Of a stretch of DNA of 11,670 nt, positions 1 to 11,670 are shown in pieces (within the stretch, counting starts at the first letter, position 1; each line of letters starts with the position of its first letter). The notes under the pieces were generated by a model that was not told the origin of the DNA, did not search any database, and saw only the letters and a list, made by a program, of their open reading frames with translations. The stretch lies in NCBI GenBank assembly GCA_043819075.1, contig JBDRFE010000072.1, positions 1 through 11,670 of the forward strand. The letters are read 5' to 3'. The translations under genes were made by a program, and so were the position numbers. Origin of the DNA: an archaeon. Lineage in GTDB: Archaea; Iainarchaeota; Iainarchaeia; Iainarchaeales; 1-14-0-10-31-34.

Positions 1-735
1 CCTTAATTCTTTTTCTGTCCCGATGTCAAAAAATTTTCCTTTAACTTCAATCCATTCGACTTTTCCCTGTTCTGCAAGCAGGTTGATTGCATCAGTTAAT
101 TCAAGTTCATTCCTTGAACTCAAAGAAATTTTTTCTATTGCAGGAAAAATTTCCGGGGTGAATTTATAGATTCCGCAGTTCACAAAGTTTTCCTTAAATT
201 CTTTTTCAGGTTCCTTTCCTGTTTTTTCGTTTATTGTTTCCGGCTTTTTTTTCCTGATTTCTTTTTCCTGTTCTTCTGAAGGCTTTTCAATTATTTTTTT
301 CACTTTTTTTCCCTGAACTTCAACTAAACCCTTTCCTTCTGCGTTTTCTGCTTCCCTTAAAACAAGAACATTTTCTTTTTTTTTCATTAACTCTTCAATG
401 AGTTCAGCTTCAAAAACCAGATCAGCGTTAACCTGAATAAAATCCTTTTTAATGAAATCTTTTGCACAGTTTAATCCGTGTGCTGTTCCTTTTTGCTCTT
501 TTTGTTCAGCGAATTCAATTTTCATTTTGTTAAATTTTTTCCCGAATTTTTTTATTATTTTTTCTTTCAGGTAACCGACAACAATAATGCATTCAGTTAT
601 TCCTGCTTTATTTAATTCAGTTAACTGCCTTTCAATAAAGCTTTTTCCGTTTAATTCAATTAAAGGCTTGGGAGTGTTTTCTGTTAACGGCTTCATCCTA
701 AGCCCTTTTCCTGCTGCAAGAATAATTGCTTTCAT
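1..735 (-). CDS. Sugar-phosphate nucleotidyltransferase (NTP_transferase family, RfbA/GlmU/GCD1-like), 3' end runs off the window
   Basis: Hand-translated from the reverse strand, ATG at 735-733: MKAIILAAGKGLRMKPLTENTPKPLIELNGK (LAAGxGxRxxP..T...PKPL signature), later EQKEQKGTAHG, VNADL, IEKP, VNCGIY, SSRNELELTDAI and FFDIGT. The frame stays open for 245 codons to base 1. It is absent from the ORF track because there is no stop in the window. Substrate and any C-terminal hexapeptide domain cannot be determined. Confidence 0.93.
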   Translation of the reverse strand, partial: MKAIILAAGKGLRMKPLTENTPKPLIELNGKSFIERQLTELNKAGITECIIVVGYLKEKIIKKFGKKFNKMKIEFAEQKEQKGTAHGLNCAKDFIKKDFIQVNADLVFEAELIEELMKKKENVLVLREAENAEGKGLVEVQGKKVKKIIEKPSEEQEKEIRKKKPETINEKTGKEPEKEFKENFVNCGIYKFTPEIFPAIEKISLSSRNELELTDAINLLAEQGKVEWIEVKGKFFDIGTEKELR

Positions 736-808
736 TCTAAAAATAGTTTTTTCAATATTCTTTTTAAAACAACGCACTATTAATTAATTCTATTTAAGGG
801 TTTTTTAC
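736..808. promoter_or_regulatory. Divergent intergenic region, probable promoters for the nucleotidyltransferase and the trxB-GGR pair
   Basis: 73-bp, very AT-rich gap between divergent start codons. It holds several TATA-like runs (TTTTTAAAA, TATTAATTAA) and AAGGG just upstream of ATG 809. Individual boxes cannot be assigned. Confidence 0.45.
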
Positions 809-1714
809 ATGAAAGACATCATAATTGTCGGCGGCTCTGGTGCAGGAGTTACTGCAGGAATTTATTCTGCAAGAAGCGGGTTAAACACAATGCTGATTAC
901 AGAAAGCTTTGGCGGTCAGCTGCTTTTGACAGAAAAAATTGAAAATTATTCCGGCTTTAAAAGCATTTCAGGCTTTGACTTGTCAATGAAGTTAAGGGAG
1001 CACTTAAAGAGCTACAAAGAAATTGAAGTCCTTGAAGGGGTAAATGTAACAGGAATTGAAAGAAAAGGAAAAAATTTTGTTGTAACCGCAGGCAAAAAAG
1101 AGTTTGAATCAAAAGCAGTCATTATTGCAACCGGAAGAAGGCCGAGAAAACTTTCAGTTAAAGGCTCGGAAAAACTTGAAAACAAGGGCATTCATTATTG
1201 TGCGGTATGCGACGGCCCGTTATATAAAGGCCAAAATGTTGCAGTAATCGGCGGAGGCTACTCCGGAGTTGAAGAAGCGCTTTACTTAAGCAATATCGCA
1301 AAAAAAGTTTTCATAATTGAAACAGGAAAACAGCTTGGCGGTGAAGAAATAACAAGAAAAGAAGTTTTACTGAAAAAAAACGTTGAAGTAATAACTGAAG
1401 CCCAGCTTTCAGAGGTTTCAGGCGAAAAAACAACTGAAGGAATAAAATACAAGAAAGATTCAGAAGAAAAATCGCTTTCAGTTAAGGCAGTTTTTGTTAA
1501 TATCGGGGAAATCCCGAACTCTGATTTTGTTTCTATTGCAGAAAAAAACCAGAGAAATGAAATAAAAATCAATTCAAGGAATGAAACAAGTATTCCGGGT
1601 TTGTTTGCAGCAGGAGATGTAACAGATATTCCTGTGCATCAGTTAATTGTTGTTGCAGGAGAAGGCTGTAAGGCAGCAATTAATGCAAACGATTATTTGA
1701 ATAAACTAAAATGA
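809..1714 (+). CDS. trxB: Thioredoxin reductase-like FAD-dependent pyridine nucleotide-disulfide oxidoreductase (resembles the AhpF C-terminal/NADH-type branch)
   Basis: 301 aa. N-terminal FAD motif IIVGGSGAG, FGGQ, IENYSG, IIATG, redox motif HYCAVCDG (Cys codons at 1199 and 1208), second Rossmann motif VIGGGYSG, and TSIPGLFAAGDVT. Confidence 0.88.
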   Translation: MKDIIIVGGSGAGVTAGIYSARSGLNTMLITESFGGQLLLTEKIENYSGFKSISGFDLSMKLREHLKSYKEIEVLEGVNVTGIERKGKNFVVTAGKKEFESKAVIIATGRRPRKLSVKGSEKLENKGIHYCAVCDGPLYKGQNVAVIGGGYSGVEEALYLSNIAKKVFIIETGKQLGGEEITRKEVLLKKNVEVITEAQLSEVSGEKTTEGIKYKKDSEEKSLSVKAVFVNIGEIPNSDFVSIAEKNQRNEIKINSRNETSIPGLFAAGDVTDIPVHQLIVVAGEGCKAAINANDYLNKLK

Positions 1715-1723
1715 TTGCTTTTT

Positions 1724-1728
1724 GGAGG
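1724..1728 (+). promoter_or_regulatory. Shine-Dalgarno-like GGAGG
   Basis: GGAGG lies 6 nt upstream of the in-frame ATG at 1735. Confidence 0.55.
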
Positions 1729-1734
1729 AATTTT

Positions 1735-2979
1735 ATGGAGTCAAATGAATTTGATGTGATTGTTGTCGGCGGTGGTCCGGCCGGAAGTTCCTGTGCTTCT
1801 TTTCTTGCAAAAAATAACGTTAAAGTTTTGCTTTTAGATAAAGCTGTTTTTCCAAGAGACAAAACCTGTGGTGATGCAATAAGCGGAAAATCTCTGGGAA
1901 TATTAAAAGAGTTGGGCTGGGATACTGGCATTGAATCATTAAAGCACGGAAATGTTTATGGTGTGACTTTTTCTTCGCCTAACGGAACTTTAGTTGACAT
2001 TCCTTTTCCAAAGCATGCAAAAGAAGGAAAATACAAAAGAGAAGGCGGGAAAGGCTATGTTGTGAGAAGAGAAGTTTATGACAATTTTTTGTTTCAGAAC
2101 GCAAAAAAGCTTGCTTTCAAGACAATTGAAGGATTCGCTGTAACAGACTTAATAAAAGAAAATGATGCTGTTGTCGGAGTCAAAGGAACCGGCTCAGACA
2201 AAAAAGAAAAAGAATTCAGGGCAAAAATTGTTGTCGGCTCTGACGGAGCAACTTCAACTGTTGCAACAAAACTAGGCTTGAATGAAATTGATGCAAGCCA
2301 TCACATCACTGCTTTAAGAGCTTATTACAAGAATGTCTCCGGCTGCAAAGGAACAATTGAAATTCATTTCATTAATTCAATGCTTCCTGGTTATTTCTGG
2401 ATTTTTCCTTTAGAAAACAATTTAGCTAATGTAGGCGTTGGAATAATCACAAAAGACTTAAGGAAAAACAAAACGAATTTACAGAAAGCAATGCTTGATG
2501 CAATAAAAGAAGACCCTTTGTTTAAAGAACGTTTTAAAAATTCTGAAATGGTTTCCCAGATTAAAGGCTGGACTCTGCCTTTAGGAAGCAAGAAAAGAAA
2601 GCTTGCAGGAAACGGTTTTGTGTTATTAGGTGATGCGGCTTCCCTGATTGACCCTTTCAGCGGGGAAGGAGTTGGGAATGCAATGACTAGCGGAAAACTT
2701 GCATCAAAAATAATCATTAAAGCATTGCAGCAGAAAAATTATTCTGCTTCAGTTTTAGAAGAATATGAGAAAAATTTATGGAATGAAATCGGTGCAGAAA
2801 TAAGGACAAGCTATTTGCTTCAAAGGCTTGGAAGGATTAGATTCCTTTTGAATTTCATTTTAGGCAAGGCGGCAAAGAAAAAAGAAGTTCAGGAAGTTAT
2901 TTCTGGAATGCTTGCAAACGAGAAAGCAAAAAAAGATTTTGTGTCCCCATTGTTTTACCTGAAACTGCTGTTCACTTAG
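1735..2979 (+). CDS. Geranylgeranyl reductase-family FAD-dependent oxidoreductase
   Basis: DVIVVGGGPAGS FAD motif, FPRDKTCGD, RREVYDNFL, VGSDGATS, PGYFWIFPL (YxWxFP, typical of GGR), ANVGVG, and LLGDAASLIDPFSGEGVGNAM. Start placed at 1735 because of the GGAGG and the usual N-terminal length. The alternative is 1711, an ATGA overlap with the trxB stop. Confidence 0.88.
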   Translation: MESNEFDVIVVGGGPAGSSCASFLAKNNVKVLLLDKAVFPRDKTCGDAISGKSLGILKELGWDTGIESLKHGNVYGVTFSSPNGTLVDIPFPKHAKEGKYKREGGKGYVVRREVYDNFLFQNAKKLAFKTIEGFAVTDLIKENDAVVGVKGTGSDKKEKEFRAKIVVGSDGATSTVATKLGLNEIDASHHITALRAYYKNVSGCKGTIEIHFINSMLPGYFWIFPLENNLANVGVGIITKDLRKNKTNLQKAMLDAIKEDPLFKERFKNSEMVSQIKGWTLPLGSKKRKLAGNGFVLLGDAASLIDPFSGEGVGNAMTSGKLASKIIIKALQQKNYSASVLEEYEKNLWNEIGAEIRTSYLLQRLGRIRFLLNFILGKAAKKKEVQEVISGMLANEKAKKDFVSPLFYLKLLFT

Positions 2980-2980
2980 G

Positions 2981-3004
2981 TTTTTTTTGTTTTTTTATTT
3001 TTTT
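2981..3004 (+). terminator. Putative archaeal oligo(T) terminator after the GGR gene
   Basis: T8-G-T7-A-T7 immediately follows TAG 2979 at a convergent gene junction. Confidence 0.45.
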
Positions 3005-4428
3005 GTCACTGAATGAAATGCTTTTTTTGTTTCAGGAAAATCTGTCCTGAAATGGCAGCCCCTGCTTTCTTTTCTTTTCAAGGCAGATTCAATTATTTTT
3101 CCTGCAAGCAAGGCAAGATTGTTTTCAGGCATTTTATTTATTTCATTCAATGCTTTTTCCATTCTGTCTTTTTTTCTTCTGATGCCGGCGTATTTCCACA
3201 TTAATTCCTTTAAGTAATTTAAGTCAAATTCTTTTTTTTCATCAGAATATTCTTTTGTTTTTATTTTTTTGCTTGCAGTTCTATTATTTTTTTCTTTTAA
3301 TGCATTCTCTCCTGCAATTGCCCCAAAAACAATTGCTTCTAGAAGTGAATTGCTTGCCAGCCTGTTTGCTCCGTGAACTCCGTTGCACGAGCATTCGCCT
3401 GCGGCAAAAACATTCCTTAAATTAGTTCTTGTGTTCAAATCAGCTTTAATGCCTCCAATAGAGTAATGTGCTGCAGGCTCAACTTCAATTAAATCACTTT
3501 CAATTTTTAATCCAAGCTCTTTTGTTTTAGAGTAAATGCTTGGAAACCTTTCCTTTAAGTTTTTTATTCCAGTGCAGTCCAAGAAAACTTTTTTTCCTGA
3601 TTTAATCTGGTTCATTATTTCAACTGAAACAACATCTCTTGTAGCCAAATCTTTTCCATGAATGTTTTCCATGAATTTTTCGTTTGCATCGTTTACAAGA
3701 AAAGCTCCTTCGCCTCTTAAAGTCTCTGACAAAAGAAAATTGTTTCCTTTAACTGTTGTCGGATGAAACTGTTCAAACTCTAAGTCCATTAACTGCATTC
3801 CTGCTTTCAATGCAATTGAAAGAGCCGTTCCTTTAGTGCTTTCAGGGTTAGTGCTTTTAGCGTATAAAGCTGAATAGCCTCCTGAAGCAAAAATTAATGA
3901 ACTGAATTCTGCAGTGAAATCTTCAAACACTGCGGTCTGAGCTGTTCCTTTTGCAGCAATCACTTCCTTTAATTCTTTTCTGAAAAAATGAATGTTTTTT
4001 TCTTCTGCAAGCTTTACAAAAAATTTTGTGAGCTCTTTTCCTGTTTCATCGCCTTTTGCATGCAATACTCTTTTCTCTGAGTGCCCTGCCTCCAAGCCGA
4101 AATCAATTCCATCAGAATTTTCGTCAAACTGAAAGCCTAATTCAATTAATTCAAGGACTTTTTTTTTCCCTTTTTGAACTAAAATTCTTGCAGCCTGCTG
4201 GTTGCTTAACCCGTCTCCTGTCCTGATTGTGTCATTAAAATGTTTTTCAGCTGAATCGTTTTTGCTTAAGGCAGCTGCAACTCCTCCTTGTGCCTTGAAG
4301 CTGTTTGCATTGGATTCTTTTCCGCAGTAAAATACTGCTGTATTCCTGTTTTTTGTGCTTTGGATTGCAGCGCTTAAGCCGGCTAAGCCTCTTCCGATTA
4401 TAATTGTGTCAAAGAATTCTTTTTCCAT
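2995..4428 (-). CDS. nadB: L-aspartate oxidase
   Basis: 477 aa. IIGRGLAG, NSFKAQGGVAA, EAGHSEKRVLH, DETGKE, ASGG, EQFHPT, LLSETLRGEG, DLATRDVVS, PAAHYSIGG, GVHGANRLASNSLLE and ESRGCHFRTDFP. It has AQGG without the covalent-FAD His of SdhA/FrdA, and EAGHS matches the NadB-type EGGHS. Confidence 0.92.
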   Translation of the reverse strand: MEKEFFDTIIIGRGLAGLSAAIQSTKNRNTAVFYCGKESNANSFKAQGGVAAALSKNDSAEKHFNDTIRTGDGLSNQQAARILVQKGKKKVLELIELGFQFDENSDGIDFGLEAGHSEKRVLHAKGDETGKELTKFFVKLAEEKNIHFFRKELKEVIAAKGTAQTAVFEDFTAEFSSLIFASGGYSALYAKSTNPESTKGTALSIALKAGMQLMDLEFEQFHPTTVKGNNFLLSETLRGEGAFLVNDANEKFMENIHGKDLATRDVVSVEIMNQIKSGKKVFLDCTGIKNLKERFPSIYSKTKELGLKIESDLIEVEPAAHYSIGGIKADLNTRTNLRNVFAAGECSCNGVHGANRLASNSLLEAIVFGAIAGENALKEKNNRTASKKIKTKEYSDEKKEFDLNYLKELMWKYAGIRRKKDRMEKALNEINKMPENNLALLAGKIIESALKRKESRGCHFRTDFPETKKAFHSVTKK

Positions 4429-4433
4429 TTAAA

Positions 4434-5336
4434 TCAGATTTCAATTTCATCCAAATCTTTTGCCGCAATAACGTTTCCGAAAAACTCTCTTGCCTCTATA
4501 TCAAATTTTTCTGTTTCTTTATGCCTTGGGCTGAAATGAAATAACACCAGTTTTTTTACTTTAGCTTTTTCCGCTATCTTTCCTGCGTCTTTTGCAGTTG
4601 AATGCATGGTTTCTTTTGCCCTGTCCTTTAATTTTTCAAGAAAAGTGCTTTCATGGAACAACACATCTGATTCACTTATTTTTTCAATGTAACTGGAATT
4701 TGCCAGAGTGTCAAAAACAAAAGAAATTTTTTTCCCAAGCTTTTTTTTGCTTTCATCCAATACATCTTCTGGCTTAAAAGTTTTTTTTCCTACCTTGATT
4801 TTTTTTCCTTTCTGCAGCTGGCCCCATAAAGGCCCTTCAGGTATTTCAAGTTTTAATGCTTTTTCCCTGCTGAATTTTCCTAAAGAATCTTTTTCCCTGA
4901 AAACATATCCATAGCACGGAACATCGTGTTTCAGCCTGAAGGCTTCAACAAAAAAGTTTTCTTCTTCAAAGATTTTGCCTTGTTTTACTTCAATTGCTTT
5001 TATTTCAAAATTCACTTTAAGCAAACTCAGCTCAATTGCTTTCATTACTTTTTCTTTGACTCCTGCCGGGCCAAAAACATGCAACGGGTAGTCTCTTTGG
5101 TGCATTGACATTGTTGCAATCAATCCTGGCAGCCCAAGAATATGGTCTCCGTGAAAATGAGATAAAAACACTGCATTAATTTTCATGTAAGAAACTTTTG
5201 CTTTCATTAACTGCCTTTGCGTTCCTTCAGGGCAGTCAAATAAATAATTTAATCCTTCAAAGTTTAATACAATTGAACTCAAGTTCCTTTCTTTTGACGG
5301 AGTTGAAGCGCTTGTTCCTAAAACAATTAATTTCAT
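4434..5336 (-). CDS. rnz: Ribonuclease Z (tRNA 3' endonuclease)
   Basis: 300 aa. LGTS...P..ERN, LFDCPEGTQRQ, metallo-beta-lactamase motif SHFHGDH, flexible arm IPEGPLWGQLQKG, HESTF, MHSTA and LFHFSPRH. Confidence 0.96.
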   Translation of the reverse strand: MKLIVLGTSASTPSKERNLSSIVLNFEGLNYLFDCPEGTQRQLMKAKVSYMKINAVFLSHFHGDHILGLPGLIATMSMHQRDYPLHVFGPAGVKEKVMKAIELSLLKVNFEIKAIEVKQGKIFEEENFFVEAFRLKHDVPCYGYVFREKDSLGKFSREKALKLEIPEGPLWGQLQKGKKIKVGKKTFKPEDVLDESKKKLGKKISFVFDTLANSSYIEKISESDVLFHESTFLEKLKDRAKETMHSTAKDAGKIAEKAKVKKLVLFHFSPRHKETEKFDIEAREFFGNVIAAKDLDEIEI

Positions 5337-5464: not shown

Positions 5465-8400
5465 GTGTCAAAAAAAGATTCAGCTGAATTAAGCTTTAAG
5501 TCAACAGCAGAAATAGAGGTTTCAAAGAAATTAATTGAACAGGTTATCGGACAGGAAAACTCGGTTGAAATAATCAAGAAAGCTGCAGCACAAAAAAGAA
5601 ACGTTTTGTTGGTTGGGCTTCCTGGCACAGGAAAAAGCATGCTTGCTCAGGCAATGGCTGAAATCCTTCCCTTAGAAAAATTAAGTGATATTTTAATTTA
5701 CCCTAACAGGGCTGATTCAAATAACCCTAAAGTAAGAGTCGTAAAAGCAGGTGAAGGAAGAAAAATAACTGAACAGGCTACATTAAACCAGATGCAAAAA
5801 GAAAGCGGTTCAAGGCTGTTAGGATTTGTATTGCCTTTAGGCTGGTTTATTCTTGCATCAGTATTGTTTAGTTTTAATTTTATTGGCGAAATAACTTTTG
5901 CCGCGCTATTGATTTTAGGCGGCTTTATTTTAGTTGGGTTTGCTTTGGGCTCGCAGATCAGGACTAAAGGCGAATCAGATGTGCCAAAATTATTGATTGA
6001 TAATTCAGGAAAAAAAATCGCTCCATTCATTGAAGCAACCGGCGCAAGAGCAGGAGCATTGCTTGGAGACGTAAGGCATGATCCGCTTCAGACAATTTTC
6101 CCAAATACCGTTGTGTATTTAGTTGAAAACGAAAGAATTAAACCTGTTTTGATTAAAGCTTTGGCTGAAAAATTATTAAACGAAAATATTCCATTAGTAA
6201 ACAAAAGTTTTAAGGATTATGAAGCCTTGGTAATCCCAGAAAATAAAATTTTAAAAGTGTTGGGTTTTGTTGACGGAAAACCTGCCCCAGTTAATTTGCT
6301 TGGAGTAAACAAGAAAACATATTCTGGAAAAATGGTTAAGGTTAGAACTAATGAAAACACAGTCATCGTCACCCCAGAACACAAGATTTGGGCTGACAAA
6401 AAGTATGTGGCGGCAGAAAAACTTTCCGGTAACGAAAAACTTGCTATTTACAATGAACCAGTGCTTACTGAACAAGACGTTTTCAACACTTTCTCTGATT
6501 TTGATAAACATTCTGCAGGCGATTATCAAAGATATGTTTCTTTAAAAAGTGTTAATCCGTCATTTGGGTACAAGAGAATTGCAAAGCTTTTGAATATCCC
6601 GCAAGGAAGGGTTAGGTGGTGGCATTCAATTAATTCAAAACCAAATGCAGTGAAAACAGTTGAATTGTTAAAAGAACTTGATCTCATTCCGCTTAAATGT
6701 GATGACCCAAGACTTCCTGTTATTTCAAGAATTCTTGGAACCACTTTTGGTGATGGGGGAATTGCTGGAAACCTGAATAATATTTTCCTTTCAAGTTCTG
6801 AGGAAATTTCTTTAAAGCAGTTCAAACATGATTTGATTTCTGTTTTTGGGGAATACACCTGTGAAAACTTCAGTGAGATAATTTCAGGAAGGAATAAAAC
6901 AGGCAGATGCATTAGAAACTCAAACAGGGCAATAATAAGGTTTTTTGTTGCTTTAGGTGCGCCGGTAGGCAAAAAAAACATGGAAATAGAGGTTCCAAGA
7001 TGGATTCACGCAAATGAAATTTCATCCAAGGAATTCTTTGGGGCTTTTTTTGGAAACGAGTTATGTTCTCCTAAATTCTCAGTAAAACACAAATACATTA
7101 ATGACTTTGCAGTTGCTTTATGCGGTAAAAAACAATTAAAAGAAAACAGACTTAAATTCTTTTCTGAGATTTCTGATTTCCTTGCCAGCTATGGCATTAA
7201 AACAACCAGTGTTTATGAAAATGAGTTCAGGAAAGGTTCTTTTATGTGGAAACTGGGCATTTCAAAAGAATTAGAAAACATAACGAGATTTAAGGAATTC
7301 ATTAAATTAAGGTATTCAGATGAAAAACAGGGGAAAATAGATAAGGCATTGTTAGATTTATTTGAATGGAAAAAAGTCAGAAAAGCAGAACTTGAAGCCA
7401 ATGAAAAAAGTAATCAATCCATTAACTCAATATTGAATATTTCAGGGCAAATAATGGAACAAATTGCTTTAGGAAAACCTTTCAGCGACAGAGAAATAAA
7501 TTATTCTGGAACAATTTATAATATAACTACTTCTTCTGGAAACATAGTTGCAAATGGCATTTTGATAAGCAATTCAGGCGGATTAGGGACTCCAGCGCAT
7601 TTAAGGGTTGAACCAGGTTATATTCACAGGACAAACGGCGGAGTATTGTTTTTGGATGAAATTGCTACTTTGTCGCAGAAATCCCAGCAGGAACTTCTTA
7701 CAGCAATGCAGGAAAAAAAATATTCTATTACAGGCCAAAGCGAGTTAAGTTCTGGTGCAATGACTCGAACTGAAGCAATTCCATGTGATTTTGTTTTGGT
7801 TGCAGCAGGAAACTATCAGGATTTAGAAAAAGTTCATCCTGCTTTAAGGTCTAGAATCAGAGGATACGGCTATGAATTGTATATGAACTTGGATATGCCT
7901 GATACAATTGAAAACAGGCACAAGATAGTGCAGTTTGTGGCTCAAGAAATAAAAAAAGACGGTAAAATCCCGCATTTTTCAAAAAAAGCAGTTGAAGTAA
8001 TTATTTTTGAGGCAAAAAGAAGAGCCGGAAGAAAAAATAACCTTACATTAAAGTTAAGGGATTTAGGCGGCTTAATCAGGGCAGCAGGAGACATTGCAAA
8101 AGAAAAAGGCCATTCTTTGGTTGAAGAAGAAGATGTATTGCATGCAAAAATTAATGCAAGGACTTTAGAGCAGCAGATGGTAAAACAAATGCTTGACGAC
8201 AGGAAAGGCTATGATGTTTTCTTGAACGAAGGAACTGCAATCGGAAGGGTTAATGGATTAGCTGTTTCAGGCGACGGCGATGCTGGAATGATTCTGCCGA
8301 TTGAAGCAGAAATTGCTCCTGCGCAAAGCAGTTCAGAAGGAAAAATTATTGCAACAGGAAAACTCGGTGAAATAGCAAAAGAAGCAGTTCAAAATGTTTC

Positions 8401-8875
8401 TGCAATAATTAAGAGAATCAGCGGAAAAGATATTTCAAAATACGATCTGCATATACAGTTTTTGCAGACTTATTCCGGAGTGGAAGGGGATTCTGCTTCA
8501 GTTTCAGTTGCAACAGCAGTTATTTCTGCTTTAGAAAAAATTCCGATAAAACAGTCTCTTGCAATGACTGGTTCTTTAAGCGTGAGAGGCGAAGTCCTTC
8601 CAGTCGGAGGGGTTACAGCAAAGGTTGCAGCTGCAATTGCGGCCGGCTTCAAACAGGTTATTGTGCCAAAAGCAAATATTCCTGACATTATTTTAACTGA
8701 AGCAGAAAAACAGAAAATTGAAATAATTCCTGCTTCAACTTTAAGCGATGTATTAAAGAATGCTTTTGAAAAAGAGCACAGAAGAAATGTTTTTTTAAAA
8801 CAGCTGGAAAAAATCCTGAATATTGAACTGCCTAAAGTTCTCAAAAATGTTTCAGGGAAACAAAATTTAAAATAA
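5465..8875 (+). CDS. lonB: Archaeal membrane-anchored ATP-dependent Lon protease (LonB) precursor with an intein; about 642 aa after splicing
   Basis: GTG start, QVIGQE, Walker A GLPGTGKS, two hydrophobic segments inserted in the AAA+ domain, ALLGDVRHDPLQ//SGGLGTPAH, Walker B VLFLDEI, HPALRSRIRGYGYE, and the Ser-Lys dyad motifs GVEGDSAS and PVGGVTAK. Confidence 0.96.
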   Translation: MSKKDSAELSFKSTAEIEVSKKLIEQVIGQENSVEIIKKAAAQKRNVLLVGLPGTGKSMLAQAMAEILPLEKLSDILIYPNRADSNNPKVRVVKAGEGRKITEQATLNQMQKESGSRLLGFVLPLGWFILASVLFSFNFIGEITFAALLILGGFILVGFALGSQIRTKGESDVPKLLIDNSGKKIAPFIEATGARAGALLGDVRHDPLQTIFPNTVVYLVENERIKPVLIKALAEKLLNENIPLVNKSFKDYEALVIPENKILKVLGFVDGKPAPVNLLGVNKKTYSGKMVKVRTNENTVIVTPEHKIWADKKYVAAEKLSGNEKLAIYNEPVLTEQDVFNTFSDFDKHSAGDYQRYVSLKSVNPSFGYKRIAKLLNIPQGRVRWWHSINSKPNAVKTVELLKELDLIPLKCDDPRLPVISRILGTTFGDGGIAGNLNNIFLSSSEEISLKQFKHDLISVFGEYTCENFSEIISGRNKTGRCIRNSNRAIIRFFVALGAPVGKKNMEIEVPRWIHANEISSKEFFGAFFGNELCSPKFSVKHKYINDFAVALCGKKQLKENRLKFFSEISDFLASYGIKTTSVYENEFRKGSFMWKLGISKELENITRFKEFIKLRYSDEKQGKIDKALLDLFEWKKVRKAELEANEKSNQSINSILNISGQIMEQIALGKPFSDREINYSGTIYNITTSSGNIVANGILISNSGGLGTPAHLRVEPGYIHRTNGGVLFLDEIATLSQKSQQELLTAMQEKKYSITGQSELSSGAMTRTEAIPCDFVLVAAGNYQDLEKVHPALRSRIRGYGYELYMNLDMPDTIENRHKIVQFVAQEIKKDGKIPHFSKKAVEVIIFEAKRRAGRKNNLTLKLRDLGGLIRAAGDIAKEKGHSLVEEEDVLHAKINARTLEQQMVKQMLDDRKGYDVFLNEGTAIGRVNGLAVSGDGDAGMILPIEAEIAPAQSSSEGKIIATGKLGEIAKEAVQNVSAIIKRISGKDISKYDLHIQFLQTYSGVEGDSASVSVATAVISALEKIPIKQSLAMTGSLSVRGEVLPVGGVTAKVAAAIAAGFKQVIVPKANIPDIILTEAEKQKIEIIPASTLSDVLKNAFEKEHRRNVFLKQLEKILNIELPKVLKNVSGKQNLK
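6092..7573 (+). mobile_element. Intein (494 aa, precursor residues 210-703) with a LAGLIDADG homing endonuclease domain, inserted in LonB
   Basis: Removing 6092-7573 restores the conserved Lon motif DVRHDPLQ-SGGLGTPAH. Block A-like TIFPNTVV, block B VTPEHKI (6371-6382), block C ILGTTFGDG (6731-6757), block D-like GAPVGKK..VPRWI, block E FFGAFFGNEL (7034-7063), blocks F/G TIYNITTSSGNIVANGILISN, then Ser+1. Confidence 0.95.
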
Positions 8876-8884
8876 TTTTTTTTT
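8876..8884 (+). terminator. Putative oligo(T) terminator after lonB
   Basis: T9 directly follows TAA 8875 and overlaps the stop codon of the convergent gene. Confidence 0.4.
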
Positions 8885-10106
8885 ATGAAACAATTATTCT
8901 TCCTTTGCGTACGCTGAACTTTGTTTTTGTCAGCTTGGTGATTTCCTCTGACTTTAATGCCTTGAACTGAATGCTTTTTTCTTTTCTGCTGATTTTTTCA
9001 ACTTTACCTATCATTTTTCCCTTGGAATAAACAGGCAGTCCAACCAATAATTCTGTTATTTTTTTTCTTGCATCAAGGACTGCGCTCAGTTTGTATGAAA
9101 CCAATAAAATAACAAAACTTGAAATCATGCTTAAAATAAACCATGTCAGGTTTGTCTGGCCTATCAGCACTAAAGTCCCTGCATCCAGGATAAACCATAA
9201 AAGCAGGGTTGAAACACCGTACATAAAATAGTTCCTTAAATAAAATGCTTTTTTGAAGTGAATTGAATCAATGCTTTTTCCGATTAAAAAAGAAACCGGA
9301 ACCAAGAACAGGAAAACAAAAAATGTTTCCTGCAGTGAAGAAATGCTTTTAATGAATAAATCTGTTTCAAGGCTTTCATTGAATGCAGTGAAAGCCTGAT
9401 AGACTCCAAAAGCCAGAATGAATAAGCTTCCGACATAAAAAATAAAGCTTGCCCTTGAAATAGAAATGTTTTGGAAAAAATCTCTTGTAGTTGAAATCAT
9501 TTTTTCTTCTATTCCAAATCCTTTCAGAATTAAATAAAATCCTAAAAACAATGAAATTAATTTAATGCTTAAGTCTCCGAAAACATAATATAAAATTAAA
9601 ATTAATCCCGGAACCCCAAAAACAATTCTTGCAAGATAAGGGTCTTTTAATGCTTCTTTAATTGTATAATAAGTGCTTTCAACTTCTGATGCCTGTTTTA
9701 CAATAATTGTTTCTTTTGAAATAATCGGCGCCCTTGACTGCAGGATTGGAAGCACTTGATCATCTTCTGCTCCGTCTGTTACTAATACAAAGCCTTCTGC
9801 GGGAAATTCCTGTAAAACCTTGTCTAACTGCTCGTTTATTTCTTTATCTGATTCAAAATCCTGTTTGCCTACTCCGGTTAAAGTAACTATTTCAACAGCA
9901 GAGTAATATTTTTTTACTTCATCAAATTTTTTTATTGCACCGAAAAGGCAGTTTACATCGCTTTCTCCCGGGTCTGCAACACCTAATTTTGCTGCTGCAT
10001 TCAGGTTGTTCTGCCTTCCGATTACTGGCCCCAAAACACCGGCTTTCCTGCCTAAGTCGTTGTCCCTGTCAACGCATACAACCATTACATTTTTTGTTTC
10101 AGCCAT
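8883..10106 (-). CDS. DUF373 family membrane protein with a basic, PRC-barrel-like C-terminal extension
   Basis: VVCVDRDNDLG.KAG..GPVIGR..NL.AA.KL...DP.ESD.N.LF and LVTDGAEDDQVLPILQSR...IVKQA..VESTYY match my recall of DUF373. About six hydrophobic segments follow, then LVGLPVYSKGKMIGKV. Confidence 0.85.
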   Translation of the reverse strand: MAETKNVMVVCVDRDNDLGRKAGVLGPVIGRQNNLNAAAKLGVADPGESDVNCLFGAIKKFDEVKKYYSAVEIVTLTGVGKQDFESDKEINEQLDKVLQEFPAEGFVLVTDGAEDDQVLPILQSRAPIISKETIIVKQASEVESTYYTIKEALKDPYLARIVFGVPGLILILYYVFGDLSIKLISLFLGFYLILKGFGIEEKMISTTRDFFQNISISRASFIFYVGSLFILAFGVYQAFTAFNESLETDLFIKSISSLQETFFVFLFLVPVSFLIGKSIDSIHFKKAFYLRNYFMYGVSTLLLWFILDAGTLVLIGQTNLTWFILSMISSFVILLVSYKLSAVLDARKKITELLVGLPVYSKGKMIGKVEKISRKEKSIQFKALKSEEITKLTKTKFSVRKGRIIVS

Positions 10107-10202
10107 GCTTTCCCTTGATTATTTTATTTAAATATACGCTTAACTTTAATAATATCTTTACCTTCTATATTTATATATAATAATCAATTAAAGGTTACTG
10201 TA
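10107..10202. promoter_or_regulatory. Divergent promoter region with archaeal TATA-box candidates
   Basis: TTTATATA at 10170-10177 (+) sits within the palindrome TTATATATAA (10171-10180), 25 nt before ATG 10203. TTTAAATA on the minus strand at 10132-10125 precedes the DUF373 start. Confidence 0.5.
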
Positions 10203-11174
10203 ATGGGCAAAAGATTTGGCAAAACAGAGAGTTATAAAATAAAACAATACGTTTTTGTGTTAGTGTTCATTGTGCTTATTGCTGTCTTATGGCTTGCCTA
10301 CACCAGAGCAGATGATTTTGCTTTATGGTTGGGCGTTGTATTTGCTTTTCTTTTAACTGCTTTTTTTGTAAGGCAATACGATTTTTTGCTTACTTTAAAA
10401 GAATATGAGAGAGCAGTAATTTTTACTTTAGGCAGGGTTACAAGAGTCGGAGGCCCTGGCTGGACTTTTGTCATTCCTGTTGTACAGTCATATGTTTTAG
10501 TTGATTTAAGGACTCAGACAATTGATGTTCCCCCCCAGGATGTTATTACCACAGACAAAATAAAGCTTACAATTGATGCAGTAATTTATTTGTTTGTTGA
10601 CAAGCAAAAAAACTCTGTAATTAATTCAGTGATTGAAATAGACGATTACAGGAATGCTGCAAGGCTTTATGTCAGGTCAACTATAAGGGATGTAGTTGGT
10701 TCAATGGATTTATCCAGTGTTATTTCAAATATTGCTTTGCTTAACTATGAAGTAAAAAGAAAATTAGATGAAGTTGCAATTCAATGGGGAGTGAAAGTTG
10801 AGTCAGTTGAAATAACTAATGTGGTTATCCCAACAGAGGTTTTGGATGCAATGCACCAGCAAAAAGCAGCAGAACAAAGAAAGCTGGCAAAGTTTGAGGA
10901 AGCCGAAGGAAGAAAGTTTGAAATAGAGGCAGTTAAAGCTGCTTCAGAGTCTTTAAGCGATAAAACAATTGCATATTATTACATTAATGCCTTGGAAAAA
11001 ATGGCTGACGGAAAAAGCACTAAAATAATTTTTCCAATGGAATTATCAAAGTTAGCTGACTCTCTTGGCCAGCAGGTTACAGGAAAAGCAAAAGGCCTTG
11101 ATTTAAGTTCAATTGGCGTTACCCCTGAAATGATTGACGCTTACTTAAAAGCAAAGAAAAAAGAAAAAAAGTGA
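10203..11174 (+). CDS. SPFH/band 7 (stomatin-like) membrane protein
   Basis: Two N-terminal hydrophobic segments, then EYERAVIFTLGR, GPG..FVIPVVQ, VDLRTQTIDVPPQDVITTD, WGVKVESVEI, AMHQQKAAEQRK and STKIIFPMEL, all typical of stomatin/QmcA proteins. Confidence 0.93.
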   Translation: MGKRFGKTESYKIKQYVFVLVFIVLIAVLWLAYTRADDFALWLGVVFAFLLTAFFVRQYDFLLTLKEYERAVIFTLGRVTRVGGPGWTFVIPVVQSYVLVDLRTQTIDVPPQDVITTDKIKLTIDAVIYLFVDKQKNSVINSVIEIDDYRNAARLYVRSTIRDVVGSMDLSSVISNIALLNYEVKRKLDEVAIQWGVKVESVEITNVVIPTEVLDAMHQQKAAEQRKLAKFEEAEGRKFEIEAVKAASESLSDKTIAYYYINALEKMADGKSTKIIFPMELSKLADSLGQQVTGKAKGLDLSSIGVTPEMIDAYLKAKKKEKK

Positions 11175-11177
11175 TTT

Positions 11178-11670
11178 TCAGCCCACAATTAATGCTGCTT
11201 CAATTACTGCTCCGATGAACAGCAGCAGCAGTGAAAGAAAGATTAATCCAATAGTGTCTTTTATCAACAGGCTTATTTCGTGTTTCCTGTAATGGCCTTT
11301 GGTGACAACAATAGAGATTAATGCTCCAGCCATTGCTCCGGCAAAATAGCCTAATACTTCAAACATTCCGTGTGGAATCAATCCTAATGCCTTGATTAAT
11401 CCATGAAAGTAAGCAAAAACATAAGCAAATGCGCCAAAACCAGCATAGCCTGAAACAAGCATTAAAGCATCTTTTCCTATTACTGCTCCGATAACAGAGG
11501 CATTCCATGCAATCAAAAACATTGCTCCGACTCCATAAACTGCTGAAAGGATTATTCCCAAAAACAGCACTCTTAAATTGTTTTGGAGTATTACGTCAAA
11601 CCAGCACCATAAATTGTCTGAACAAACAGTTGTTGTGCCTGTAATGTTTCCAGTTAACTCTGTTTTGAGT
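11178..11670 (-). CDS. Stage II sporulation protein M (SpoIIM/DUF95) family membrane protein, 5' end outside the window
   Basis: The frame of the 11178-11570 ORF stays open to the window edge (LKTELTGNITGTTTVCSDNLWCWFDVILQNNLRVLF...). Family-like motifs are ILQNN, WNASVIG, LIPHGMFEVLGY and IGAVIEA. Confidence 0.8.
   Translation of the reverse strand, partial: LKTELTGNITGTTTVCSDNLWCWFDVILQNNLRVLFLGIILSAVYGVGAMFLIAWNASVIGAVIGKDALMLVSGYAGFGAFAYVFAYFHGLIKALGLIPHGMFEVLGYFAGAMAGALISIVVTKGHYRKHEISLLIKDTIGLIFLSLLLLFIGAVIEAALIVG

Follow-up and report, generated by a model that had tools for sequence, protein, structure and literature searches.

Whether threonine can serve as the first residue of a natural, splicing intein, and by which route such an intein would splice, is the question raised by a lonB gene of an archaeon of the Iainarchaeales on contig JBDRFE010000072.1 (here the window: the whole stretch of DNA analysed, 11,670 nucleotides). 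A passage of a 2010 paper states that no natural intein had been seen with Thr1, and the same passage describes a mutant, S1T, of the pol-2 intein from Thermococcus litoralis (Tli) that splices (PMC2807308); that mutant is an engineered point substitution, whereas the threonine considered here is natural. In the later sources, a 2014 review gives Cys1 or Ser1 in a passage of its text and allows Thr in a figure legend (PMC4031507), a 2020 passage names residue 1 as cysteine or serine (PMC7664689), passages from 2023 name only Cys or Ser (Pasch 2023), a 2025 passage names Ser1 (PMC12707363), and one further figure legend includes Thr1, without an example (PMC7765530). No natural Thr1 intein was found in the literature covered, a case in InBase, in a subscription paper or in supplementary material (of PMC2807308, or the Fig. 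S7 alignment of PMC10189870) being possible.

The gene and its intein are laid out as follows, coordinates being those of the window:

5465..8875, + strand: lonB, encoding a membrane ATP-dependent protease; precursor of 1136 aa, predicted to be 642 aa once spliced
5465..6091, + strand: N-extein, 209 aa, with Walker A GLPGTGKS at 5615 and DVRHDPLQ as last residues
6092..7573, + strand: contiguous intein, 494 aa, predicted HINT fold with LAGLIDADG endonuclease; TIGR01445 above cutoff
6092..6094, + strand: Thr1 codon ACA, directly 3' of the CAG (Gln) of DVRHDPLQ; putative nucleophile
6308..6322, + strand: NX-motif region with Asn73, Lys75 and Tyr77, Lys75 being in the column of the NX His
6371..6382, + strand: block B TPEH, Thr94 (B7) and His97 (B10)
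6464..7470, + strand: helical linker and LAGLIDADG endonuclease, borders approximate; linker HTH-like as judged from the model helices
6734-6757, + strand: LAGLIDADG motif 1, LGTTFGDG
7040-7060, + strand: LAGLIDADG motif 2, GAFFGNE
7514..7573, + strand: blocks F and G, IYNITTSSGN...LISN, with Ser493 at G6 and Asn494 at G7
7520-7522, + strand: Asn477 at F4
7571-7573, + strand: C-terminal Asn494, AAT, last intein residue
7574..7576, + strand: Ser+1, TCA, proposed branch-point nucleophile, followed by GGLGTPAH
7574..8875, + strand: C-extein, with Walker B GGVLFLDE (7637), GDSAS (8486) and GGVTAKV (8606)

LonB matches TIGR00764 with 862 bits against a cutoff of 516.6 and is the sole extein match in the assembly, which at 90.6% completeness leaves a small chance of a second lon; the GDSAS and GGVTAKV motifs of its protease domain are the usual Ser-Lys dyad motifs. 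The insertion point, with junctions reading Q/TIFP...ISN/SGG, lies between Walker A and Walker B and splits the AAA+ domain. GC content is 33% in the intein against 38% in the exteins, all five of its cysteines fall within the linker and endonuclease (6464..7470) with none in the splicing domain, and the block F His is absent from 7514..7573. A promoter scan found nothing, and the flanking genes (1-5336, 8883-11669) look ordinary: a nucleotidyl transferase, a pyridine nucleotide-disulphide oxidoreductase, a geranylgeranyl reductase-like protein, an FAD_binding_2 flavoprotein, and RNase Z-like, DUF373, Band 7 and SpoIIM-like proteins.

A first-pass annotation of the window, made from the letters alone, had read residue 1 as threonine, and this reading holds. 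ACA is confirmed at 6092-6094, and the intein-less alleles in four of five same-genus genomes read HDPLQ/SGGLGTP, which settles the position of the two junctions and with it Thr as residue 1. An error of sequencing or assembly in a TCA codon, which lies one change away from ACA, is refuted: the codon check proposed by the annotation, made on assembled contigs rather than raw reads, returned ACA again in two studies. One contig, from run X1, possibly the source sample, spans 5800-6211 at a depth of 23.9, and one from run X4, of the other study, spans 5985-6136 at a depth of 2, each with 0 differences among those listed; the nearest relative, L272 (71% identical), has ACA too, and the cis clade uses ACA, ACC and ACT. 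Chance is not an issue, since dozens of relatives share Thr1. Locus L287, considered as a second copy of the studied locus, was rejected as such and is a Thr1 allele of a different organism.

An AlphaFold model of the intein (pLDDT 92.7, 75 sequences; model residues 11..504 correspond to Thr1..Asn494) predicts a HINT fold with a LAGLIDADG domain. In structural comparison the modelled Thr1..Asn494 aligns with residues 1..537 of PI-PkoII (2cw7, Z 19.8), 1..454 of PI-PfuI and 1..440 of Mtu RecA, and in the model Thr occupies the residue-1 slot of the HINT fold. The endonuclease region of the model matches I-DmoI (Z about 15), with two motif helices bearing acidic residues as in a LAGLIDADG homing endonuclease, and the GDGG and G[NS]E motifs are conserved. 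Pfam gave no intein or LAGLIDADG match in the studied protein, and a single-sequence search against solved structures gave no significant match.

By these features the intein is most likely a variant of class 1 and not a new class. The termini of the predicted HINT fold are in register with residue 1 and G7, block B supplies Thr B7 and His B10, and Asn494 is followed by Ser+1; Thr1 itself qualifies only under a wording of the class that allows Cys, Ser or Thr as the residue-1 nucleophile. The NX motif of cysteine-less Ser1 inteins, an [RK]-His pair some 20 residues N-terminal of His B10, is replaced by K74-K75. The annotation had reported block B TPEH and Asn at F4, both of which are present, and had argued that neither bypass route fits, with which the missing signatures agree. 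In class 2, according to a passage of PMC4031507, residue 1 is Ala, +1 is Cys and the Asp at F4 is essential, and the Mja KlbA intein (2jmz) combines these with a KlbA host, against Thr1, Ser+1, Asn477 and a LonB host here; for class 3, Ile99, Asn477 and Ile492 stand in place of Trp B12, Cys F4 and Thr G5, and residue 1 is not of the non-nucleophilic kind. The Trp of TPEHKIW falls at B13, one position past B12, which leaves the intein with no WCT triplet, and none of 271 family N-termini has Trp at B12. The suggestion that Asn F4 and the missing C-terminal His mark a mechanism specific to Thr1 falls away: Asn F4 occurs in 56/56 Thr1, 49/49 Cys1 and 29/29 Ser1 members, and, like Thr F6 and the absence of His from block F and from G6, it is a family-wide trait, independent of residue 1. 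Among the same 271 N-termini, His97 is present in all, Thr94 in 269 and Asn73 in 267.

Among the closest known systems is the Thermococcales Lon intein (Pyrococcus horikoshii LonB cluster, UniRef O58221), which at 30-35% identity shares the site HDP[LF]Q/SGG, the LAGLIDADG motifs, TP[ED]H, Asn F4 and the lack of a block F or G6 His, but has Cys1 and 474 aa in place of Thr1 and 494 aa. With the same site and homologous splicing and endonuclease domains, the studied intein is an allele of the Thermococcales type, and empty and filled lonB alleles co-occur inside one genus. The Lon intein of P. abyssi, said to be the subject of a 2010 mechanism paper by O'Brien, reportedly splices and sits at the same site.

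Two protein searches returned 224 proteins, 211 of them with an intein after the junction; once 20 of another type (about 429 aa, all Cys1) were removed, the 191 family N-termini, studied intein included, comprised 102 Cys, 64 Ser and 25 Thr, and nothing else. A third search brought 96 further proteins, of which 68 were kept (two lacked the junction and 26 were near-duplicates), and these new N-termini, like the 191 not selected on residue 1, divide into 35 Cys, 18 Ser and 15 Thr. GTDB holds 83 alleles in the single junction context DVLHDP[LF]Q, with 39 Ser, 23 Cys and 21 Thr. When DNA was scanned for Gln followed by a Thr, Ile, Met, Asn or Lys codon (next codon not G-initial), all 28 GTDB hits (3 cis, 25 split) and all 27 metagenome hits (7 cis, 16 split, 4 cut off) had Thr, and all four ACN codons are in use within the family. 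A scan for Gln with any codon starting in G or C behind it returned 76 rows, comprising 71 empty Ala+1 alleles, 5 unrelated sequences and 0 inteins, and the control scans found no intein with Ala, Pro, Gly, Ile, Asn or a similar residue 1, their coverage of Phe, Leu(TTR), Tyr, Trp and Arg(AGR) being incomplete. The 71 empty alleles (L166-L241) are mostly from Thermoplasmata; Ala+1 would bar splicing of this Lon intein and may represent an escape from invasion.

Position 1 thus takes three residue types in the 271 de-duplicated N-termini, a set enriched for Thr by the DNA scans that asked for it, against 15-18 types at positions 3-10, so that position 1 admits only side-chain nucleophiles. Ser+1 follows in 40/40 split and 16/16 cis Thr1 alleles tabulated, the +1 label of cis rows from proteins being taken from the junction match. 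A natural Thr1 intein, as the annotation proposed, remains the best reading, but the rarity it assumed does not survive the tabulation it suggested, since Thr1 accounts for 25 of 191 N-termini and 21 of 83 alleles. It had also considered that Thr1 might prove both common and already characterised among Lon inteins; Thr1 is common, and no characterised natural case was found. The homologues are labelled Ca. Diapherotrites, Micrarchaeota and Woesearchaeota, which makes a DPANN host most likely; a one-sequence search of GTDB with the studied intein alone returned no related locus.

On a tree of 135 long inteins, built with residues 1-15 left out, a minimum of 25 changes is required for the distribution of Cys, Ser and Thr, and of 13 for Thr set against the rest. 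In a set of 38 rows (LG+G4), monophyly of Thr1 is rejected (p-AU 0.015). The studied intein falls within a 29-member cis clade (support 99/97), in which all 12 Cys1 members and the sole Ser1 member belong to a starred 17-row subclade together with four Thr1 members, and the rows outside that subclade are Thr1 in 12 of 12 cases. When the cis clade is rooted on Cys1 inteins of the Thermococcales type, its ancestral residue 1 appears to be Thr, with a later return to Cys. Thr1 is kept across cis members 45-72% identical, and in comparison with L272 the N-terminal splicing region has dN 0.27 and dS 2.34 and the endonuclease dN 0.17 and dS 2.08, dS being near saturation in both; splicing and endonuclease regions are under purifying selection, with dN/dS of about 0.1. 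An origin of Thr1 by capture of the recipient's +1 codon, suggested by how common Thr+1 is in empty alleles, is disfavoured by codon usage. Thr+1 occurs in at least 94 of the 115 empty-allele rows listed, mostly as ACA (ACT in 9 of 94 among the matches listed), against ACT in 27 of 55 Thr1 codons (p 1e-7), so point changes TGT > AGT > ACT fit better; the TCN codons of Ser1 are mostly TCA (17/25), like the Ser+1 codon, which leaves capture some probability. Residues 2-25 of the split alleles are far more variable than the remainder, and identical N-terminal types reappear in combination with Cys, Ser and Thr as residue 1.

A second line of evidence comes from a column distant from residue 1. 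The NX His is described in passages of Pasch 2023 as conserved in Ser1 inteins, essential in three and linked to Ser1 activation, with one Tyr and one Asn at this position among 58 Ser1 inteins. In a profile of 92 N-terminal regions, by which the column was also assigned in the studied intein, column 75 falls opposite the His in the LIRHDYSG stretch of PI-PkoII, and from the R-H pattern we take it to be the NX His column. Long split halves have Tyr75 in 64 of 64 Ser/Thr members (26/26 Ser1, 38/38 Thr1) and in 0 of 23 Cys1 members, which have His (11), Gln (11) or Arg (1); the p value, which ignores kinship, is 2e-21 against 1e-4 for the next column, and 6 of 6 independent pairs on starred branches agree (p 0.031). 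The held-out set repeats the pattern, with Tyr75 in 31 of 33 Ser/Thr members (17/18 Ser1, 14/15 Thr1) and 0 of 35 Cys1, both exceptions being His75 (one read by eye from the sequence). Short split halves have Tyr75 in 20/67 Ser1, 7/9 Thr1 and 0/53 Cys1. An N-region-only tree leaves 2 starred independent pairs, both in the same direction, and counts 13 changes where shuffling gives a mean of 20.2; part of the pattern is therefore due to shared descent or recombination. In the Lon family His75 goes mostly with Cys1 (11/23 and 19/35 split Cys1), the reverse of the published NX rule, and in the split branch we infer that Tyr at the NX column may replace the NX His as activator of a hydroxyl residue 1. 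Natural near-pairs, CFLGYLYTKKY with His75 and SFLGYLYTKKY and TFLGYLYTKKY with Tyr75, differ at residues 1 and 75 and make nucleophile choice directly testable.

The studied intein has Lys75, neither His nor Tyr, so this strongest covariation does not cover it. Its cis branch has Lys or Arg at column 75 in Thr1 and Cys1 members alike, with Tyr75 in 0 of 17 Ser/Thr members; the best cis signal is Tyr77, in 17 of 17 Ser/Thr against 4 of 12 Cys1, which could be explained by descent. Lys75, Tyr77 and Asn73 are candidate activators, and Lys75 has a possible parallel in the Lys near the NX place that, in a passage of PMC4031507, activates the N-junction in Tko CDC21-1.

The reading to which we assign a probability of about 0.8 is a functional, mobile class 1 intein with Thr1 as its first nucleophile: residue 1 of the family is restricted to nucleophiles, thiol or hydroxyl at that residue is coupled to the NX column in relatives, and the conserved insert splits the AAA+ domain of the assembly's only lon, LonB being reported as essential in Haloferax in a passage of PMC4343526. 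As many related inserts also begin with Thr, threonine is very probably a natural third way of starting protein splicing. The Thr1 hydroxyl would attack the Gln(-1)-Thr1 peptide bond (N-O shift), aided by Thr94 and His97, and the ester would pass from Thr1 to Ser+1; Asn494 would then cyclise without the usual F13 and G6 His, as across the whole family, and an O-N shift would give HDPLQSGGLGT and an intact AAA+ domain, with HDPLQSGGLGTPAHLR as the ligated peptide. Across the family, residue 1 switches between no states other than Cys, Ser and Thr, and in the split branch Tyr at the NX column accompanies a hydroxyl at residue 1. The cysteine-less class 1 Ser1/Ser+1 inteins PI-PkoII (2cw7), Aes123 PolB1 (9hth) and PolB16 OarG (8cpn) likewise have a hydroxyl at both junctions and share the block B His and, in the model, the HINT fold (Z 19.8, 19.0 and 14.9), and by analogy an oxyester route would be expected in both; they pair Ser1 with the NX His, whereas Thr1 members of the Lon family have Lys (as here), Arg or Tyr instead.

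Three other accounts of the same residues were weighed against nucleophilic Thr1. A bypass like that of class 2, with Ser+1 making a direct attack on the N-terminal amide and with packing or hydrogen bonding as the reason for keeping Thr1, is unlikely: Mja KlbA is the best sequence match among solved structures (E 2.8e-16), shares Ser at G6 and Lys at the NX column (VWRKKYSGK), and the studied intein is without an NX His, yet the class 2 residues at positions 1, +1 and F4 are all different here, no set contains a non-nucleophilic residue 1, thiol or hydroxyl at that residue covaries with a distant column, and by fold class 1 inteins outrank KlbA (Z 19.8 vs 17.4). Somewhat less probable still is a degenerate or barely splicing allele carried by an active endonuclease. 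Threonine is a bulkier and poorer nucleophile, F4 Asp, F13 His, G6 His and NX His are all missing, and four of five same-genus genomes are intein-less; but the missing residues are missing family-wide, Thr1 has persisted at 45-72% identity through saturated synonymous sites at dN/dS about 0.1, and the assembly has no other lon. The F13 and G6 His are, moreover, dispensable in other inteins according to a passage of PMC4031507.

An internal first nucleophile, in the manner of class 3 and other than Cys F4 (a Cys elsewhere, or Tyr or Thr), would be in keeping with the Cys at G5 of many split partners (29/40 Thr1) and with the almost invariant Asn73 and block F Thr-Thr; it is very improbable given that the splicing domain of the studied intein has zero Cys, G5 is Ala, Ile or Val in 16/16 cis Thr1 members, Trp B12 is absent in all 271 N-termini, and Cys G5 is equally common with Cys1 (11/18).

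We give roughly even odds to the wider proposition that DPANN LonB inteins form a large cis and split family in which the first nucleophile has repeatedly switched between Cys, Ser and Thr, with Thr1 as a stable functional state, and in which the choice of hydroxyl or thiol depends on one second site, the NX column (Tyr, or Lys/Arg with Tyr77 in the cis branch of the studied intein). If true, protein splicing would have a way of activating an oxygen nucleophile independently of His, and two residues would form a switch for converting Cys inteins into cysteine-less ones. A natural Thr1 fills the gap stated in the 2010 passage (PMC2807308), the chemistry itself being unsurprising, and the family offers candidate split inteins by the dozen that combine Ser+1 with Thr1 or Ser1; a literature search on split DPANN Lon inteins found nothing.

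Most relatives (L031-L050, L242-L379) are split into two genes, Lon-N with IntN and IntC with Lon-C, as are 25 of the 28 Thr1 alleles in GTDB; IntN spans 120-135 aa, or about 475 aa where it carries the endonuclease, and IntC is 40-60 aa long. Some split relatives have a second intein after TEPVP or TEAVP, which gives three pieces. A same-genus assembly, G004 (C146, C148), has two split Cys1 N-halves, possibly through bin contamination, and the second, roughly 429-aa Cys1 intein type (CI[LP]P...THN) occupies the same Lon site in L033, L304, L313 and P0100-P0120, sometimes with Thr+1. Other alleles (6058-7615), whose flanks are the same or nearly so, are present in the same samples, in runs X1, X3 and X4. 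Record 9 of X3 is an exact match over 5800-6058 and picks up the match again at 7571, the two parts being separated by about 1.6 kb of unrelated letters; in X1 a loose end ahead of 7571 looks like the end of another intein (NLFVEDVLVS); and X4 holds an empty allele of a relative. These alleles point to inteins in competition for one site, their flanks having been co-converted. Elsewhere in the set, an RtcB-like gene (G000:C45:2487-5435, +) carries a Cys1 intein with an endonuclease akin to that of the Lon intein (27% identity), and an unusual host, which from its motifs we take to be ribosomal protein uS12 (G000:C4:13236-15221, +), is interrupted by a Cys1/Cys+1 endonuclease intein (NSGIRK/CVSPET...TGN/CVRVQL).
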